A stretch of DNA of 64,000 bases from Bdellovibrionales bacterium. GTDB lineage: Bacteria; Bdellovibrionota; Bdellovibrionia; Bdellovibrionales; UBA1609. The translations under genes and the position numbers were made by a program. Under the pieces are notes generated by a model. It saw nothing but the letters and a program-made list of their open reading frames with translations. It made no database searches and had not been told where the DNA came from. Where the stretch lies: the NCBI GenBank assembly GCA_027317865.1, contig DAHVQG010000002.1, forward strand, positions 32,001 through 96,000, written 5' to 3'. Below, one piece after another: positions 31,225 through 64,000 of the stretch. Every line of letters starts with the position of its first letter. The stretch's first letter is position 1.

Positions 31225-31881
31225 ATGCTTCTAAGTAAGAAAGCCATACTATTTCTGTTTGTGGCACTTTCGTTTGTCGGGTTTTCACAGGCCGTATTTT
31301 CGCAGTCGTTAAATAATCCAACATATATTTGCAACGCCGCGACTAAAGTACCACAGCATCAACAAGCATTTTGGGGAAATGAATCGTCTTTACTAGTCCA
31401 GGCGCGAACTTCAGCTATGAATAAATGCAAAACGGATTCAACCGTTTCAACCTACTGTCATCCGTTTGATTGCTATTACATTGTCGACCGCGGATTTGGC
31501 CATACTGGCCTGCAACCCGTTACGGGGTTCTTGCAAAACCCAACCGCAAATCCAGTAAACAGCCGCCTTGCCGCACTCCCCGATAATCAATTGCTCAAGT
31601 TGGTTTGGGGTCCAAAATTGAATTCTTATAACGCGATTGAGCATTGCTATTTAATGCATGAAAGTGACCGCGCCTATACATCGATTAGACGCCACCACGG
31701 CATGTCCGATTACTACTTGGTTTCGGTAAAAAGATATTCGAGTTATCCGGATACCGTAACCTCCGCGCGGTTCTTTTTTAAAGAAAATCACGATGCACAA
31801 GCGCTTCACGGAGCACTCAATAGCCTCAGAGAGTTTCTCTTGTCCAGAACTTGTGAGCATTTGCTCCCCAATCCACTATAG
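31225..31881 (+). CDS. Secreted hypothetical protein with Cys residues
   Basis: Signal peptide, SD GAGGG, six Cys. No family recognised. Confidence 0.7.
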   Translation: MLLSKKAILFLFVALSFVGFSQAVFSQSLNNPTYICNAATKVPQHQQAFWGNESSLLVQARTSAMNKCKTDSTVSTYCHPFDCYYIVDRGFGHTGLQPVTGFLQNPTANPVNSRLAALPDNQLLKLVWGPKLNSYNAIEHCYLMHESDRAYTSIRRHHGMSDYYLVSVKRYSSYPDTVTSARFFFKENHDAQALHGALNSLREFLLSRTCEHLLPNPL

Positions 31882-57509: not shown

Positions 57510-59469
57510 TCGTTACTTTTACCCCGCCAGCACGACCAGAGTCGCCTTCAGCCAGCACAAAGTCAACTCGGCCGGTTTCATGGTCAGCGGCGGCGACTTG
57601 AATCCGAACGGAATCACCGATTGCGTAGGTCAGTTTCGATCGTCGACCAACTAGCCGCAAATTATTTTCATCAAATTCAAAATGATCGTGACCCAATTCT
57701 TCAACTCGTATCAAACCATCGACGTCGAACTGTCGCAGGGTCACGAACACCCCAAATTTCGCAACTGAACTGATCAGTCCGTCAAATTCTTGACCGAGGT
57801 GTTTCTGTAAAAAACGTGCCTTTTTTATGGAGTGGATCTGACGCTCGGCTTTAACTGCGCGCTGTTCACAGGCGCTAAGAAATGCTCCGGCATCGTCTAA
57901 ATCTGATGCCGAGATTTTACTGTAACCGCGAATTCCAAGCATCGATTTCACGAGGCGATGCACAATAAGATCGGGATACCGCCGTATGGGCGAAGTGAAA
58001 TGCGTGTAATTCTTAAAACCCAACCCGAAATGACCGACATTTTCGCGGCTATAGCGGGCCTGATTCATCGACCGTAAAGTGAGTATGTTAATTACCGTTT
58101 CTTCAGGACGATCTTCAAATTCCTCTAACGCTTGTGTTATACGCTGAAGAACTCGGGACTTCCCCAGTCGGTTTTTGTAACCGAATGCATCCAAAAAGTG
58201 CTCAAGCATTTCAATCGCCTCGGGTCGCGGTGGCTCGTGAATACGAAACAACGCCGGAATGTTTTTCTCAACCAAAAAATCGGCAACAGCGACATTTGCC
58301 GCAAGCATGAGTTCTTCAATCAGACGATGTGAAAAAATCCGCTCCGCCCGAATGATGTCAACCGGCACGCCCGCATCGTCGAGCTCAATGGTAGATTCGG
58401 GAATTTCAAGATTGAGCGAACCTTCGCGAAAGCGCCTTTCCATCAAAACTCGGGCCAACTCCGCACACGTTTTGATGTTCTGTTGAACCGCATCGAGATG
58501 CGGCGGACACGAACCTTCAATAACCTCCTGCGCTTCACCATAGGTAACACGCGCATGGCTTTGAATCACAGCCTCGTAGAGGCGACAGCCCCCTTTGCGC
58601 TCGCCATGAAATGTAAAATCCATTTCGGCAACCAACGCGAGTCTCGGAACATTCGGCTTGAGCGAGCAAAGTTCGTTGCTCAATTCTTCGGGGAGCATCG
58701 GTTCAACAAAATTAGGAAAATATACGCTTGTGCCGCGATCATAGGCGTCTCTGTCAATTGCGGAGGTCGGTTTGACATATTGACTGACATCCGCGATGGC
58801 AACCCAAAGTCGAAATCCGCCCCCTATTTTTTCAGTGTAAACGGCATCGTCAAAATCTTTTGCCGTTTGCCCGTCGATCGTGACCAATTTTTTGCTTCTT
58901 AAATCTCGTCGGGAGCCAAACTCTTTTTCGTTTACCTCGCGCGGCAGGGTTTTTCGCTCAGCTTGCGCTTCACGCGAAAAATTCATGGGAATATGATGGC
59001 TCGCTAAGACACGCAAATTGTCATTAAGTGGATCTGATACGTCGCCGATCACCCGTTCAACTTCACCGTGAAATCCGCGAACAGAATCCGGATAACTCGT
59101 AATTTTTACGATCACCCATTCTTTATCGAGGACTTTGATTTCTGGCGACCATGTGACATTTAGAGTTTCGCCCCAGCCATGGCTCTCGTCTTGAATAAAT
59201 CCCCGTGACACATTGACGATCTTAAGCTGACCCGTAACAATTTTTGTTTTTCGCTCAATTACATTAATGCGATTCGCTCGCAACCGGTGGTTATCTCGCT
59301 CAATTGAGATTTCGACACGGTCGCTCGTCATCACCCCATTCATCAAATGCTTGGGGACGTAGACGTCGGCCATATCCGCATCGTCCGGTATAAAAAATCC
59401 GTATCCGTCGGGATGCCTTTTGATGATACCTGAGAAATGGCGTGGTGATGTTATCTTGCGGTTTTTCAA
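57379..59469 (-). CDS. rnr: Ribonuclease R
   Basis: HPDGYGF CSD, TIDGQTAKDFDDAV, HFTSPIRRYPDLIVHR, S1 domain, basic tail. Confidence 0.95.
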   Translation of the reverse strand: MKNRKITSPRHFSGIIKRHPDGYGFFIPDDADMADVYVPKHLMNGVMTSDRVEISIERDNHRLRANRINVIERKTKIVTGQLKIVNVSRGFIQDESHGWGETLNVTWSPEIKVLDKEWVIVKITSYPDSVRGFHGEVERVIGDVSDPLNDNLRVLASHHIPMNFSREAQAERKTLPREVNEKEFGSRRDLRSKKLVTIDGQTAKDFDDAVYTEKIGGGFRLWVAIADVSQYVKPTSAIDRDAYDRGTSVYFPNFVEPMLPEELSNELCSLKPNVPRLALVAEMDFTFHGERKGGCRLYEAVIQSHARVTYGEAQEVIEGSCPPHLDAVQQNIKTCAELARVLMERRFREGSLNLEIPESTIELDDAGVPVDIIRAERIFSHRLIEELMLAANVAVADFLVEKNIPALFRIHEPPRPEAIEMLEHFLDAFGYKNRLGKSRVLQRITQALEEFEDRPEETVINILTLRSMNQARYSRENVGHFGLGFKNYTHFTSPIRRYPDLIVHRLVKSMLGIRGYSKISASDLDDAGAFLSACEQRAVKAERQIHSIKKARFLQKHLGQEFDGLISSVAKFGVFVTLRQFDVDGLIRVEELGHDHFEFDENNLRLVGRRSKLTYAIGDSVRIQVAAADHETGRVDFVLAEGDSGRAGGVKVTNAKKNKAKSDSKRRPFEKHRNRTGKVRVSRRSRSSRFKKARFS

Positions 59470-59596
59470 GCCGTTTTAAACAATACGTTTAAAGACGCAG
59501 TTCGTCTATCAGGTAAATTCTTCAACGTGGTGCGCATTTTTTGCAATATCACCTTTCTATCCGCTATGGTCGACGAAAATCAAAAAAGGGGGGGAT

Positions 59597-60364
59597 ATGT
59601 TTGGGAAACGAAAGCTTTCAATAACAGTAAGTGCATCCGTTTTCATTTTGGCAGGGGCAGTTGCGACGGCAGTTGGCTGCAAAGCGAGCGCCACGCCGAT
59701 TAAGAATGAACTGCAATCCGACTGGAGATACATCCAATCCGTTCAAATTAAAAAAATAAGCGAAACGCAGTTACCTTACCAAACGACTTCAATGGGGTAC
59801 AATTACAGTTGTACAACTAGCCCTAACGGAATGTCGCCGGATGAAAATGCACAAGCGGCAAATCCTTTTAGTCTAGTAAACATTTCGCAAATCATAAATT
59901 TTGGCGCCAAGGTTTGGCAGTTTATTAATGACAACACACCCGTGGTATCGGCGCAGACTATGTCAGCTAATGCTCTGCCGAAGGGCACCGTTTGTTGGTA
60001 CGATCTTGAAAATTGGCAACCGCCACGCAGTGACACTTACGAAATCGATTATAAAAACCTATTTGGCATAAATGTCGTACGCCTCGCGTTTAGCCTCATT
60101 TACAGTTACGGGGGCCAATACAACGGGCGCGGCCGTTATCTAATGAATGCGACGGTTCAATATCGCGATTTGCAAGTGGCTTGGGGCGGATTTCATGTTA
60201 ACGCCAACGTTGATGTCCCAACCGTGACAAACATTGGTACCAAACAAAATCCAGTTGCCGGGCTTCAGCTTAATATTCACTGGGTCGTCAAAGGGCTTAA
60301 TCGCATCGAGCGCACCGCGAGCTTTTTCATTGCTGGTGACGGACGCCCGACCAAAGAACTATGA
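59597..60364 (+). CDS. Hypothetical lipoprotein
   Basis: SD GGGGGG, lipobox AVGC, amphipathic IINFGAKVWQFI, then a beta-rich domain. Confidence 0.75.
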   Translation: MFGKRKLSITVSASVFILAGAVATAVGCKASATPIKNELQSDWRYIQSVQIKKISETQLPYQTTSMGYNYSCTTSPNGMSPDENAQAANPFSLVNISQIINFGAKVWQFINDNTPVVSAQTMSANALPKGTVCWYDLENWQPPRSDTYEIDYKNLFGINVVRLAFSLIYSYGGQYNGRGRYLMNATVQYRDLQVAWGGFHVNANVDVPTVTNIGTKQNPVAGLQLNIHWVVKGLNRIERTASFFIAGDGRPTKEL

Positions 60365-63300
60365 CGCTTTCTCAGTCAAAATTTTACTACAAGGTATATT
60401 CGGGCGAAGTCGAGAACTTCGCTCGCGCAATTGTCGGCGCCGATTGATGGCGTCGACGTAGTCGCTGAACGGTTTGCGATTTTCTCGAGCTAAAACCGAA
60501 TTTTGAATCGATTCAAATTGCTGCCCATCTAAGCTGCCATTGTTGCGAATAATAGCGGCAGCAGCGGCGCGAACCAAATCCCAATTCTGTTCGAGATATT
60601 GTCGCGCGAGATTTTCCCCTTCATCTATAAGCTCATTCATTTTTTGCTCGAGCAGTTTTGACTGCTCTGGTGTTAAAACAGGCTCACCGTTATCATTTAA
60701 GCGAATACCCCGCAGCCGCTTATCTAATCCCCACTTAATAAAATAATTCGTGGCGATATTTCGTGCTTGTTCCAAGTCGTTTGAAGCACCGCTGTCTTCC
60801 GCGTAACCCGCCAACGACTGTGCGACTCGACCAGCCATAAGCTGCGCGATCGTCGCTAATGCTCCTTCTCGAGTCATATTTCCCGAGCGTCCGGGCAGCA
60901 AATCGTACCTCGCGTATCCTAAATACATTAAGTCTTTGGCGCGACCACCGCGAATTGTGACGTATTCAAGAACCTTACCGGTGAGCTTGGGGTCATTGAC
61001 GACGGCGTGTCCTGCTTCATGGTAAACAACGGCCATTGCTTCGCGCGCATCCATCAGCATTCGAGTGGAGGCGTGCTCGGTTAGATCAATACGATGCGTA
61101 CTTGTATTTCCGTTTGAGTCGGCGACTTGGGCCACAATTTCAGTTTTTCGTTTTGGCGAGTTTGAAAAACGGTAGGGCTTGAGTCGTCCGTTATCTTTAA
61201 GTTCAAGTCGAACTTTTACGGAGTCAAATCCTTGCTCAGGTATTCCGTGGTCGATCAAGGCGCTGGTTAACAACGAATTTAAACGATGATCCGTTAGATC
61301 GCGAATGCTTCGCCCGCCTTTGTCTTTGCTAAAGAAACTTTCAGCCAACTGTCTGATAAACTGCTCATCGTATTCAACTTTTACCCCTGAATTGTTGGCT
61401 TCATAATGTGAGATCTGTTGGGCGAAAAGTTTTCGCGTTATCGCCTCGGCTTCAGGGCTCAATATCGGCTTCATCAAAACCGAATCAGCCATTCTATTAA
61501 TAAATGCTTGCGGCACACCCGCGCGAAGCAACAATTCTCGTACTCGTTCGCGCGCCTTGTAAGTCTCCCAAACTTTCATGAGCATATCATCAGAGGTAAT
61601 CCCCTGAAACAACTCCTCACCGTCGTTACCCGTGAAGACAAATACATATTTGCTGAGGTCGTACACTTTTCCGTTAACCGGAGACACCCACGTTTTTTCA
61701 TCAACAATGTTATAGAGCTTTTTAAATAACTCGGCTTTGCGAGCCCGGTCTCCGCCACCCATGTTTGATGCTTCGTCAAAAATAATTACGCCGCCATTTG
61801 GATGAGCGATTAGCGCCTCTTCAAATAAGCGCGGCTGATCCGAGCCAATATAACCCGGCTGAACGCCGAGCACTTTGTTGAAATCGGCCTCGTTCTGAAC
61901 CTCACCGAGAGGAATGATAGTGGCTTGATCAATGGAACCGAAACCAGCCTCCGCAATCGCCCTGCCCATTTCAGTTTTGCCGTTGCCCGAAGTTCCAATA
62001 AAAAAGAACGAGGTCGCCCGATCGTTTTCATTTTGCCCGAGTTTTGCAATCAGTGCTTCAGATGCGCTTTTGCCGGCTTCAGTTTGCCCGATCACGCGTC
62101 TGCCAATTACTTCTGGAATGCTTTTTAACTTCGCGACGACTTGCGGGTCATATAGAGGATTTTGGCTCGAGTTTTGCGGACCCAAAAGTTTCACGTCTAC
62201 GTCATGACCTTTAGCGCGTAAATATGTTTTATTCTTATCGCCCTTAAATATTGAAACGACGATTTCTTCGGATTTCTGAGGCTCTTCACCACCGACTTTG
62301 GTGAACAAATTCGTCAAGTGCGTTTTAACTGCGCGTCGTATCTGACGGCCATCATCGTTGGCGGTAAAGTTGGTCAACGCGAGATATTTAACTACTTGAG
62401 GTTCAATTTCAACTTGCAGACCGATTTCTCTCATTTGCCCGACAAAAACATCGGCCTCGTCTTGCGCAATTTTCACCGCAGCTTCGTCTGATAGGGGTTG
62501 CGACAGTAGCCATCCGTCGATTCTGTTTATCACTTCGCGCGGCAACATTTTTCTATCACTTGCTCCTTGCGAAGTTTCATACAGTTCTCGAAGTTCGGCC
62601 GTCGTAACGGTTTCAACTCGTTTTTTAAGCTGCTCGTTCGTCCAATTCTTTATCTCCCGCGGGAATATCTTTTTCGTTCCACGGTTGGAGGTGAGAATAA
62701 TATATAGAAAATTTGCCTTATACTTTGTGCCATCGCCCGCCGTGATTTCGCCACGATCAAGAAGTTCCATGAGGCGCATCCAAATTTCCGGATGCATTTT
62801 GTCCGCCTCATTGATCACAAGTACGCCGTTACCGCCGGTGGCTTTCAGCCATTCGGTTATGGCACCTTTTTGCTGGCCAGCTTGACCCGGCGGCGCACCG
62901 ACAAGTTTATGAAACTCAAAGGAATTCGACATCTGTTGTTGATATTCGGTTCCATCAATCTTGAGCACGTACTTATCAGATCCAAAAATGTCTTTAGCGA
63001 ATTCTTCAGCCGCGTAGGACTTGCCGGTTCCTGACGGGCCCATCATTAGCGCAGTAAAAACTCGCTTAGAAGGGTTCATAAGCGACATTTTGTAAAGATC
63101 CGTGAGCCCATCAATCAGCCGATCTTGTCCGTATATCCTATCGTGAAGTTCGGTTGACAGATTTTTGGCTCGATCTTCGACTTCAGTTAGCCGACCCATA
63201 CCCAAGTTTTTGGGGAGCCATTTAAAATCCGACTGTTGAGGAGCCAGCCAGAATCTTGGAATATCATCGATCGATCGCGCTTTCGAGACAAAAGGCCGAA

Positions 63301-63814
63301 ACCGTTCGTCGATTTGTGTCGCTTCTCCGTTATCATTTAAAAGTTGCTCATAGGTGGCGGTTTGGCCGTCTTCTTTCAAGACCGAAAACAGAAAATATTC
63401 TTTGCTATTAGAAAGCGTCACCCAGCGGCCCGACCATTCCTTAATTTGCGTACCGTCTATACCCAGTTTTTGTAAAATCCCCGCCGAATTGTAGACCCAT
63501 ACCGATTTGCCGCGAATGATGAGGACGTCATTAGGGTTTAATTGCGGCGCCACCTGATCGCGAGCCGCATAGTACGCGCTTTCATTTACCGCCAAAAGCT
63601 TCGGGCGAGCTTTCCACGGAGCGAATTGCTTTACCATTTTCGGATTCTGTCCGTTGCTTTTAACGTAAAGCGCGGAATTTAAATACAAGCGGCCGTGGCC
63701 CAGAAAAACCTGTTTTGTACCATAGTCGATGTAAACTTTTTCTGTTTCAGCCCGCACCTGGTTGCAGCACATGATCGTTACCACAGCTAAGAGTACGGCC
63801 TTCCCCCACTTCAT
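60359..63814 (-). CDS. Signal-peptide-bearing protein with two ClpB-NBD2-like AAA+ domains and an FtsH/M41 zinc-protease domain
   Basis: ATG 63814 after GGGGGG. MKWGKAVLLAVVTIMCCNQVRA; Walker A GPSGTGKS and GTSGNGKT; HEAGH...AGRVA...GASNDLEQA. Confidence 0.88.
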   Translation of the reverse strand: MKWGKAVLLAVVTIMCCNQVRAETEKVYIDYGTKQVFLGHGRLYLNSALYVKSNGQNPKMVKQFAPWKARPKLLAVNESAYYAARDQVAPQLNPNDVLIIRGKSVWVYNSAGILQKLGIDGTQIKEWSGRWVTLSNSKEYFLFSVLKEDGQTATYEQLLNDNGEATQIDERFRPFVSKARSIDDIPRFWLAPQQSDFKWLPKNLGMGRLTEVEDRAKNLSTELHDRIYGQDRLIDGLTDLYKMSLMNPSKRVFTALMMGPSGTGKSYAAEEFAKDIFGSDKYVLKIDGTEYQQQMSNSFEFHKLVGAPPGQAGQQKGAITEWLKATGGNGVLVINEADKMHPEIWMRLMELLDRGEITAGDGTKYKANFLYIILTSNRGTKKIFPREIKNWTNEQLKKRVETVTTAELRELYETSQGASDRKMLPREVINRIDGWLLSQPLSDEAAVKIAQDEADVFVGQMREIGLQVEIEPQVVKYLALTNFTANDDGRQIRRAVKTHLTNLFTKVGGEEPQKSEEIVVSIFKGDKNKTYLRAKGHDVDVKLLGPQNSSQNPLYDPQVVAKLKSIPEVIGRRVIGQTEAGKSASEALIAKLGQNENDRATSFFFIGTSGNGKTEMGRAIAEAGFGSIDQATIIPLGEVQNEADFNKVLGVQPGYIGSDQPRLFEEALIAHPNGGVIIFDEASNMGGGDRARKAELFKKLYNIVDEKTWVSPVNGKVYDLSKYVFVFTGNDGEELFQGITSDDMLMKVWETYKARERVRELLLRAGVPQAFINRMADSVLMKPILSPEAEAITRKLFAQQISHYEANNSGVKVEYDEQFIRQLAESFFSKDKGGRSIRDLTDHRLNSLLTSALIDHGIPEQGFDSVKVRLELKDNGRLKPYRFSNSPKRKTEIVAQVADSNGNTSTHRIDLTEHASTRMLMDAREAMAVVYHEAGHAVVNDPKLTGKVLEYVTIRGGRAKDLMYLGYARYDLLPGRSGNMTREGALATIAQLMAGRVAQSLAGYAEDSGASNDLEQARNIATNYFIKWGLDKRLRGIRLNDNGEPVLTPEQSKLLEQKMNELIDEGENLARQYLEQNWDLVRAAAAAIIRNNGSLDGQQFESIQNSVLARENRKPFSDYVDAINRRRQLRERSSRLRPNIPCSKILTEKAS

Positions 63815-64000
63815 GAAATCCCCCCGGATTAGTCTTTCGCGCCTGAACACGATCCCAAAAATGCTTTATGGCTCTACCACAGCTTTTTCATAAAGTGATT
63901 TGCAACAGTAGAAAATGAAACCTTTACACAATTGCGCTTTTAAATCTGCTTGAGTGAATGGCGCATGTGCGTTAACAAATCAGAATGATTCTCGACGGAA

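Follow-up and report, generated by a model that had tools for sequence, protein, structure and literature searches.

AAA+ proteases such as FtsH, Lon, ClpXP/AP and the proteasome act in compartments that contain ATP. Two groups come closest to the protein described here: FtsH, in which a metallopeptidase of family M41 follows a single classical-clade AAA module in one chain that has two transmembrane (TM) helices and a periplasmic loop domain and faces the cytoplasm, and the class I Clp/Hsp100 proteins (ClpB, ClpA, ClpC and ClpV), in which AAA+ modules stand in tandem in one chain. Here we analysed a 64,000-nucleotide stretch of DNA from a Bdellovibrionales bacterium (contig DAHVQG010000002.1 of assembly GCA_027317865.1; hereafter the window), in which one reverse-strand gene near the right end encodes, in this order, a predicted Sec-type signal peptide, an all-beta domain, two AAA+ modules of the ClpB-NBD2 type, an M41 peptidase and a Cys-bearing tail (Table 1). 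Judging from its sequence and from that of its relatives, we lean slightly towards the view that this is a Sec-exported hexameric unfoldase-protease that would work outside the producer's cytoplasm, probably in prey.

Like FtsH, the window protein carries M41 on the C-terminal side of its ATPase part, and a processive, ATP-dependent hexamer would be expected of it; unlike FtsH, it has a cleavable-type signal, no TM segment and two Clp/Hsp100-type modules, or three in the long forms of its family. With Clp/Hsp100 proteins it shares, besides the tandem arrangement, NBD2-type modules with a GYVG-type pore loop, a sensor-1 Asn, an Arg finger and a GAR-type sensor-2, and its structural model superposes on double-ring ClpC, ClpB and ClpA chains. 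It differs from them in that there is no Clp_N, no NBD1 in the short form to which it belongs and no annotated M-domain or ClpP-docking loop, in that the protease is fused, and in that its modules fall into a separate clade, outside canonical NBD2.

A literature search found no paper describing a protein that joins a signal peptide to two or three Clp-type rings, M41 and a Cys tag, and a comparative-genomics paper on the phylum contains no mention of AAA, M41, FtsH, ClpB, signal peptide or ATPase. The architecture, which the original prediction had called unrecognised, is present as described and appears to lack a published description. The accompanying statement that Clp proteins have no fused peptidase holds for characterised proteins and fails for unnamed Atlas clusters that share a Clp-type module and M41; these are 581-722 aa long, commonest in Uroviricota and Bacteroidota and, unlike the window protein, long enough for one AAA module only. 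Four further proteins (P0046, P0061, P0063 and P0065, of which P0061 is the 'AAA family ATPase' of Mesoterricola silvestris) also share the Clp-type module and M41, in an AAA_2, classical AAA and M41 arrangement with no signal peptide. Because such unnamed and signal-less fusions exist in databases, the bare joining of a Clp module to M41 is not unique to this family. Among phages, none of 123 matching INPHARED records covers 80% of module 2 plus M41.

The identity of the domains rests on several profile and structure comparisons that agree with one another. Pfam AAA_2 matched in two stretches (113.6 bits, cut-off 27), ClpB_D2-small with 32 bits (cut-off 21.9) and Peptidase_M41 (PF01434) with 62.5 bits (cut-off 29.9), residues 920-1102 covering profile positions 2-190 of 191; AAA_2 twice plus Peptidase_M41 is the layout that had been expected. 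Torsin was matched weakly at residues 211-278, its 25 bits staying below the cut-off of 27, and Pfam found neither Clp_N nor NBD1 in the window protein. In NCBIfam, residues 214-522 align to positions 554-845 of 853 and residues 561-869 to positions 555-851 of 852 of the ClpB/ClpV models, so that both modules fall on the NBD2 part, as the original prediction had held. At residue level both align to NBD2 of Thermus thermophilus ClpB (4lj4, 4lj8), with Walker A and B, pore loop, sensor-1, Arg finger and sensor-2 in register, and the peptidase aligns to residues 401-592 of Escherichia coli FtsH, with HEAGH and the Asp of GASND in register. The two modules of the window protein are 26% identical to each other over 275 residues.

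All motifs claimed beforehand were found at their places in the translation, HEAGH to the nucleotide. Beyond those in Table 1, these are GQD (229-231), LVGAPPGQAG (304-313), LTSN (374-377), EVINRID and GRQIRR in module 1, GQT (576-578), GYIG, FTGN, FINRM and GGRSIR in module 2, and AGRVA in the peptidase part. The pore loop of module 1, GAPPGQAG, has Gln in place of Tyr, and that of module 2, QPGYIG, retains the Tyr. The profile score, the HEXXH motif and the third-ligand Asp place the peptidase in family M41, and AAA_2 together with ClpB_D2-small places the modules in the Clp/Hsp100 NBD2-type clade; by these matches the protein is a member of both. Its scores stay below the cut-offs of the equivalog models for FtsH (TIGR01241, 64.3 against 600 bits, the peptidase part alone matching), ClpB (TIGR03346, 186.7 against 1232.1 bits), ClpA (TIGR02639, 162.9 against 993.15 bits) and ClpV (TIGR03345, 174.7 against 884.95 bits). 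Since both these scores and the architecture depart from the named proteins, it is neither FtsH nor ClpB.

The AlphaFold2 (AF2) model of the whole chain has a mean predicted local distance difference test (pLDDT) score of 80.2; both AAA modules and the peptidase contain blocks scoring 85-95, and the top Foldseek matches of the model were double-ring ClpC, ClpB and ClpA chains over about 700-850 alignment columns. Ahead of module 1, residues 23-210 gave no Pfam match, as expected of the domain without known family that had been proposed there; its proposed size of about 200 aa resolves into an all-beta domain of about 150 aa and a low-confidence linker up to about residue 205. This domain, common to the short forms, also had no NCBIfam match. 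Its AF2 model is all-beta (pLDDT 83-90 over fragment residues 70-150), and the best VIA-align matches (Z up to 6.5) were all propeller blades, a weak resemblance; there was no Foldseek match at E<=0.001 and no usable Atlas match. The domain may select or hold the substrate.

Whether the catalytic parts look functional can be judged from the family. A first search returned 32 clusters at E<=8e-104 and an exhaustive one 176 representatives at E<=1e-30; family statistics below refer to 124 representatives of at least 1000 aa with HExxH (48 shorter or fragmentary rows of 172 were left out), and column counts refer to an alignment of 108 members that are 24-66% identical to the window protein. The residues counted are those of Walker A (Lys), Walker B (Glu), sensor-1, the Arg finger, sensor-2, HExxH and the third zinc ligand, together with the Walker B Asp. 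In module 1, K265 is kept in 108 members, E336, N377 and R431 in 107 each and R490 in 104; in module 2, K613, R774 and R835 are kept in all 108, E681 and N730 in 107 each and D680 in 103; and in the peptidase H932 and H936 are kept in 107, E933 in 106 and D1013 in all 108. This pattern suggests purifying selection on catalysis, and such retention of ATPase and peptidase residues in the 108 sequences is consistent with an active, ATP-dependent protease that is exported from the cytoplasm.

The original prediction had described module 1 as partly degenerate. At its Walker B Asp position 83 members have Asn and 24 Asp, so that the substitution noticed in the window protein is real and is the family norm; with every other ATPase residue kept, it looks like a fixed family variant and not like decay. 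The Gln at its pore position is, by comparison, a minority state (Tyr 31, Val 22, Ile 12, Leu 10, Thr 10, Gln 8 and Phe 4 of 108). At the corresponding position of module 2, Tyr is found in 49 and Phe in 16 members.

The N-terminus reads as a Sec signal of the signal peptidase I (SPase I) type: its n-region is MKWGK, its h-region AVLLAVVTIMCC and its c-region NQVRA followed by E, with V at -3 and A at -1. The full signal is MKWGKAVLLAVVTIMCCNQVRA, and cleavage is predicted immediately before ETEK. These calls come from our own heuristic for n-, h- and c-regions, which found a suitable n-region and h-region and small residues at -3 and -1; there is no lipobox. By hydropathy there is no further TM segment in the window protein, nor in 112 of the 124 family members, in agreement with the original prediction of no other TM segment. 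Under the strict heuristic a signal-like N-terminus is present in 88 of the 124 representatives; of the 36 left unflagged, 9 lack an initial Met and are fragments, about 15 have, by eye, a hydrophobic N-terminus that the rule missed, and one is the 66% orthologue discussed below. A looser measure, an uncharged stretch of at least 9 residues within the first 40 aa, picks out 108 of 124 (median length 14). Net charge is +1.5 before this stretch and -0.59 after it, and is higher before than after in 84 of 110 sequences, a charge pattern typical of cleavable signals and not of anchors that leave a protein facing the cytoplasm. Members often have small residues at -3 and -1, and the signal peptide appears to be a family-wide feature.

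The choice of start codon makes no difference to this. The ATG at 63814, preceded by a G-rich, Shine-Dalgarno-like run (ccggggggatttcATG), gives the 1151-aa protein, a GTG-started version of the open reading frame (ORF) occupies 60359..63850 (-), and the signal peptide is retained with either. The next in-frame Met that would drop the signal is residue 60, inside sequence that aligns with the N-terminal domain of an orthologue. In the 66% orthologue of genome G006 the same kind of N-terminus begins at an upstream GTG that its gene call missed.

Table 1 Parts of the protease gene in the window
Feature	Residues	Position in window	Strand	Basis
Whole coding sequence, with stop codon 60359-60361	1151 aa	60359..63814	(-)	ORF list, translation
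Sec-type signal peptide (predicted)	1-22	63749..63814	(-)	sequence, n/h/c heuristic, family statistics
N-terminal all-beta domain of short forms (~150 aa)	~23-175	63290..63748	(-)	AF2 model; without known family
AAA+ module 1, ClpB-NBD2 type	~205-525	62240..63202	(-)	Pfam AAA_2, TIGR03346 554-845, 4lj4 alignment, column counts
Module 1 Walker A GPSGTGKS	259-266	63017-63040	(-)	
Module 1 Walker B INEADK, Asn at Asp position	334-339	62798-62815	(-)	
AAA+ module 2, ClpB-NBD2 type with D2-small lid	~545-880	61175..62182	(-)	Pfam AAA_2 second stretch, ClpB_D2-small 790-860, TIGR03345 555-851, 4lj8 alignment, column counts
Module 2 Walker A GTSGNGKT	607-614	61973-61996	(-)	
Module 2 Walker B IFDEAS	678-683	61766-61783	(-)	
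M41 zinc metallopeptidase domain	~915-1110	60485..61072	(-)	Pfam Peptidase_M41, E. coli FtsH alignment, column counts
HEAGH	932-936	61007-61021	(-)	
GASND, with third zinc ligand Asp1013	1009-1013	60776-60790	(-)	
C-terminal tag C-S-K-I-L + 5-residue tail	from C1142	60362..60391	(-)	Cys positions, column counts

An artificial joining of unrelated genes during assembly, which would have undone the original prediction, was ruled out. Contigs from 4 other sequencing runs cover the gene with no joints and no loose ends: single contigs bridge the junction of the peptidase with module 2 (59400-61650 and 60113-61933), that of module 2 with module 1 (61436-62485) and the passage from module 1 through the N-terminal domain and signal into upstream DNA (62842-64000 and 63193-64000). 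The same architecture also recurs in many independent assemblies.

The family is found in 11 of 41 close relatives. Across the phylum, 40 of 401 Bdellovibrionota genomes carry it, the counts for high-quality genomes and for genera being 32 of 337 and 30 of 203. In the Atlas, its cluster occurs most often in Bdellovibrionota, a phylum being recorded for only 4 of its members; database names of members are limited to 'AAA family ATPase' or 'ClpA/ClpC', and the sole organism name attached to one is 'Oligoflexia bacterium'. The host genome (2.65 Mb, 99% complete) encodes a ValS whose nearest named relatives, at 64-65% identity, are metagenome-assembled genomes of Bdellovibrionales and Pseudobdellovibrionaceae, which affiliates the lineage with obligate predators. 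A locus search with the pattern [TV][AS][YFI]HEAGHA was set aside, as it caught ordinary FtsH and yielded no taxonomy for the family: of its 600 stretches, 506 encoded relatives, and almost every one of the 80 retained matched in the peptidase part alone. The sole long match outside the phylum in that search (L013) proved to be two adjacent genes, FtsH and a ClpB-like protein.

Members differ in the number of rings. Three P-loops are present in 60 of the 124 representatives, two in 54, one in 8 and four in 2, and the long forms, of about 1400-1500 aa, have a helical N-terminal region and a ClpB-NBD1-like module ahead of two NBD2-type modules. One such long-form paralogue lies in the same genome (G000 C37:76460-80812 (-), or L010 6460-10812); it comprises 1450 aa with signal, helical region, NBD1-like module, two NBD2-type modules, M41 and tag, and is 37% identical to the window protein over residues 221-1121. 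A third protein of the genome (G000 C38:191229-194516 (+); L109, P0234) is divergent and signal-bearing, has 1095 aa and is AAA-AAA-M41-like: it shows the AAA motifs GLPGVGKT and GFPGIGKT, a weak M41 match with HEFGH that scores 25.9 bits against a cut-off of 29.9, and a tag, ...SDCANILQGA, whose Cys is the sole one outside its signal. There are up to three such proteins per genome.

From 19 of the 108 aligned members, picked by hand, and 11 outgroup modules we built an unrooted tree with 49 rows. The module 1 group received support of 100/98 and the module 2 group of 85/79, and modules 1 and 2 together with one divergent relative split from canonical ClpB/ClpA/ClpV NBD2 (98/90 versus 98/93). 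Nine short-form module 1 rows formed one group (99/99) nested among long forms. We read this as an old internal duplication of an NBD2-type module, followed by derivation of the two-ring form from a three-ring form (NBD1, NBD2a, NBD2b and M41) that would have lost NBD1 and gained the beta domain; the tree being unrooted, this order is a reading and not a proof.

A further feature shared by the family is a Cys near the C-terminus. The window protein has Cys only at positions 16, 17 and 1142, which leaves C1142, ten residues from the end, as the sole Cys of the mature chain. Its alignment column holds Cys in 103 of 108 sequences, and exactly one Cys is present in the last 30 aa of 120 of the 124 members, its median distance from the end being 8 residues (range 1-24). 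The residue at +3 is hydrophobic in 100 of these 120 and that at +4 in 114 (Leu in 50, Phe in 39), giving a tag consensus of C-x-x-hydrophobic-[L/F], also written [S/T]-C-x-x-hydrophobic-[L/F].

Scanning the host genome for C-x-x-[LIVMFY]-[LIVMF] in the last 25 residues, we found the tag in 29 of 572 ORFs that have a signal and no TM segment, compared with 26 of the other 1620 (Fisher p=2.8e-5), and in 63 of 6408 internal 25-residue windows, an enrichment of about fivefold over internal windows and about threefold over non-signal proteins. With a looser signal heuristic the enrichment was weaker (53 of 1038 against 40 of 1281, p=0.019), and both heuristics over-call signals. About 25 other predicted exported proteins of the genome carry the tag; of 26 that were scanned, 19 matched no Pfam family, and the others include GH15, peptidase S51 and PRPP-synthetase-like (PRPP, phosphoribosyl pyrophosphate) proteins. 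Tagged genes cluster, as 6 of 9 genes around the long-form paralogue carry the tag (G000 C37:72871-87198; L010 2871-17198), and large signal-bearing proteins flank the homologue in two other genera, C-x-x-L-F being the last residues of these neighbours. In the window itself, a 218-aa signal-peptide protein at 31225-31881 (+) bears the tag, ending ...RTCEHLLPNPL.

The tag may be a new sorting or attachment signal, and the MYXO-CTERM/myxosortase tags offer the nearest comparison. In MYXO-CTERM the parts after the Cys are a TM helix and an Arg-rich end. The window family, by contrast, has a median of 8 residues after the Cys, and this short tail makes its tag unlike MYXO-CTERM and places it outside tags of that type. 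CaaX-like processing by a CPBP/Rce1 protease was likewise rejected, since PF02517, the family to which the cognate sortase of MYXO-CTERM belongs, was not found in the 99% complete genome, with 11 of 14 control genomes positive. By the abstract of a MYXO-CTERM paper (PMC11980579), many signal-peptide proteins from a single lineage share a C-terminal tag in which an invariant Cys is followed by further parts. We also considered depletion of Cys from the protein body as a sign of export (family body Cys frequency 0.0008, 58 of 124 members without any; 3-13 Cys in the four signal-less AAA_2-AAA-M41 fusions) and dropped it, because the cytoplasmic ClpB, ClpA, FtsH and Lon of the genome have 1-3 Cys.

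The company kept by the family bears on where its members might act. The long-form paralogue sits among signal-peptide proteins that include PRPP-synthetase-like and LOG/SLOG-like enzymes. The former, at L010 14155-15597 (-) (G000 C37:84155-85597), is a 480-aa protein with signal peptide and cysteine tag. Its subfamily comprises 50 clusters of 443-487 aa, of which 44 have a signal-like N-terminus and 41 a Cys in the last 25 residues, against 0 of 70 and 6 of 70 canonical PRPP synthetases; the canonical reaction uses ATP. Two LOG/SLOG-type proteins (Lysine_decarbox, LDcluster4) lie in the same cluster at L010 12398-14158 (-) and 17202-17822 (-), the one of 586 aa with a signal-like N-terminus and the one of 206 aa without. 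Together, the LOG/SLOG and PRPP-synthetase-like genes suggest exported nucleotide-processing chemistry. In another genus (genome G028), a family member adjoins a 1677-aa signal-bearing protein (L120 3683-8716 (-)) that carries an ABC1 atypical kinase-like domain and ends ...NTCKKLF. As the canonical substrates of PRPP-synthetase-like and kinase-like proteins are nucleotides, their export argues for a nucleotide-containing destination.

A few further neighbours were recorded. The tagged cluster is flanked by signal-bearing ParB-like nuclease (ParBc_2, E=6.6e-52) and endonuclease/exonuclease/phosphatase proteins (L010 1057-1779 (+) and 1793-2899 (-)). In the window, a 255-aa predicted lipoprotein with a lipobox-like AVGC is encoded at 59597-60364 (+), convergent with the protease gene and overlapping its stop region by 6 bases; this gene is not kept beside the orthologue in G006. 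A promoter and terminator scan returned no more sites than were found in shuffled sequence.

As for a delivery route, the genome has four secretin genes, and neither a T6SS (type VI secretion system) sheath nor VirB4 was found in it; this combination would fit a two-step, Sec-dependent route. The search for an ATP/ADP translocase (PF03219) had no match in the genome, and its controls matched nowhere either. AAA+ proteins outside the cytosol have a counterpart in animals, where torsins, NBD2-related AAA+ proteins with a signal peptide, work in the lumen of the endoplasmic reticulum. Such a location is therefore possible where ATP is imported, as it is there. Torsins, which are eukaryotic and consist of one module without a protease, lack an Arg finger of their own; Arg fingers are kept in the window family. 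ATP outside the producer's cytoplasm is plausible in this lineage: the reference list of one review cites an ATP transport system in Bdellovibrio bacteriovorus 109J. In the relevant part of a second review, the export of lytic enzymes is modelled at the predator-prey junction with access to the prey cytoplasm, and the evidence on such enzymes and secretion systems is there described as limited.

If the window protein is exported as we favour, its 22-residue signal would carry the unfolded chain across the inner membrane and be cut off after VRA. The mature protein would work in the manner of FtsH, Lon or ClpAP and form a hexamer, as is expected because its ClpB NBD2 and FtsH homologues are both hexameric, in stacked tiers: a collar of beta domains, AAA ring 1, AAA ring 2 and the M41 chamber. 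Ring 2, given its canonical Walker A and B motifs and aromatic pore loop, would be the main translocating motor; ring 1, which keeps all nucleotide-binding and sensor residues but has Asn for the Walker B Asp and a pore loop that varies, would bind ATP and either hydrolyse it slowly or play a regulatory part. Unfolded substrate would then be threaded to the HEAGH/Asp1013 site and cut into peptides. The least certain step is the place of action: as ATP is needed, it would be an ATP-containing compartment outside the producer's cytoplasm, most likely the prey cytoplasm or the bdelloplast, where the enzyme would digest prey proteins. The original prediction had named prey and bdelloplast too, and the signal-bearing proteins with ATP- or nucleotide-using domains lend this site indirect support. 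The tail Cys tag would be the shared mark of an exported set and probably serves sorting, covalent attachment or control. A bolder version is possible but doubtful: that Sec signal and Cys tag together mark an unrecognised Bdellovibrionota sorting route carrying ATP- or nucleotide-dependent enzymes into the prey cytoplasm, its cargo including the two- and three-ring AAA+ M41 proteases, the PRPP-synthetase-like enzymes and the ABC1-kinase-like proteins, with the protease burning the victim's ATP to digest its proteome.

Several observations weigh against action outside the producer. The signal heuristic is crude and over-calls, flagging 699 of 2319 genome ORFs as signal-bearing, and body Cys content is unusable as a sign of export, 23 of 24 other ClpB matches having no Cys at all. 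The route to an ATP-containing compartment is assumed, none having been found, and the predatory lifestyle of this uncultured organism is read from its taxonomy. To our knowledge, the periplasm is generally held to lack ATP. The Asn that most members carry in module 1 would weaken a classical threading motor, as would pore loops with Tyr or Phe in only 35 of 108 (module 1) and 65 of 108 members (module 2). The family is also patchy, with no match at E<=1e-40 in 361 of the 401 phylum genomes, which points to an accessory weapon or tool and not to a core function of predation. Part of this would suit a protease for quality control or processing in the envelope that stays in the periplasm of its producer, either free or held there by its tail Cys, and whose rings would be ATP-independent scaffolds or binders or would use an unrecognised periplasmic nucleotide supply: a Sec signal alone predicts a periplasmic location and nothing further, the Asn and the many non-aromatic pore loops could mean relaxed motor function, and the genome shows no dedicated injection system of the kinds looked for. 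We nevertheless regard this as rather unlikely, because the Walker A Lys, Walker B Glu, sensor-1 Asn, Arg finger and sensor-2 Arg of both modules, kept in 104-108 of 108 sequences despite identities of 24-66%, are hard to explain without nucleotide hydrolysis, and because the same genomes export the PRPP-synthetase-like and kinase-like proteins that argue for a destination containing nucleotides.

The ATP problem would vanish altogether if the protein were never exported, its N-terminus being either an uncleaved anchor with the bulk in the cytoplasm, one helix in the manner of FtsH, or the product of a mispredicted start, so that the cell's own ATP would serve. FtsH, the closest relative of the peptidase, is indeed membrane-anchored and cytoplasm-facing, soluble signal-less fusions of AAA_2, AAA and M41 do exist, and our signal calls are heuristic. 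Set against this are the shortness of the hydrophobic stretch, whose median of 14 includes the c-region, the fall in charge across it, which gives an N-in/C-out orientation, the small residues at -3 and -1, the missing second TM segment, and a signal that holds across the family and across alternative start codons, the next Met lying within sequence that aligns with an orthologue's N-terminal domain; retention in the cytoplasm is accordingly quite improbable. Delivery into prey could also serve an end other than bulk digestion, namely killing by the selective unfolding and destruction of a few essential proteins, with targets chosen by the variable N-terminal domain. The N-terminal region is in fact the variable part of the family (a beta domain in short forms, a helical domain with NBD1 in long ones), a genome may hold up to three such proteins, and the gene lies among family-less proteins, as effectors often do, most of the tagged proteins scanned having no Pfam family. 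No cognate immunity gene is evident beside the gene, and the present data do not separate such an effector from an enzyme of bulk digestion; we consider it unlikely.

A signal peptide on a protein with conserved ATPase and zinc-protease sites challenges the textbook picture: either ATP-driven proteolysis takes place beyond the producer's inner membrane, or such machines are shipped into another cell. In the latter case, the family would provide a molecular handle on the long-standing question of how predatory bacteria dismantle the prey cytoplasm, and would represent a new class of delivered effector, a complete unfoldase-protease. If true, it would be the first bacterial AAA+ protease known to act outside its producer. 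An M41 chamber topped by a stack of two or three Clp-type rings is in addition a new natural design for AAA+ protease engineering, and the Cys tag, which may be a new sorting signal, could help to catalogue all the enzymes that these organisms export.

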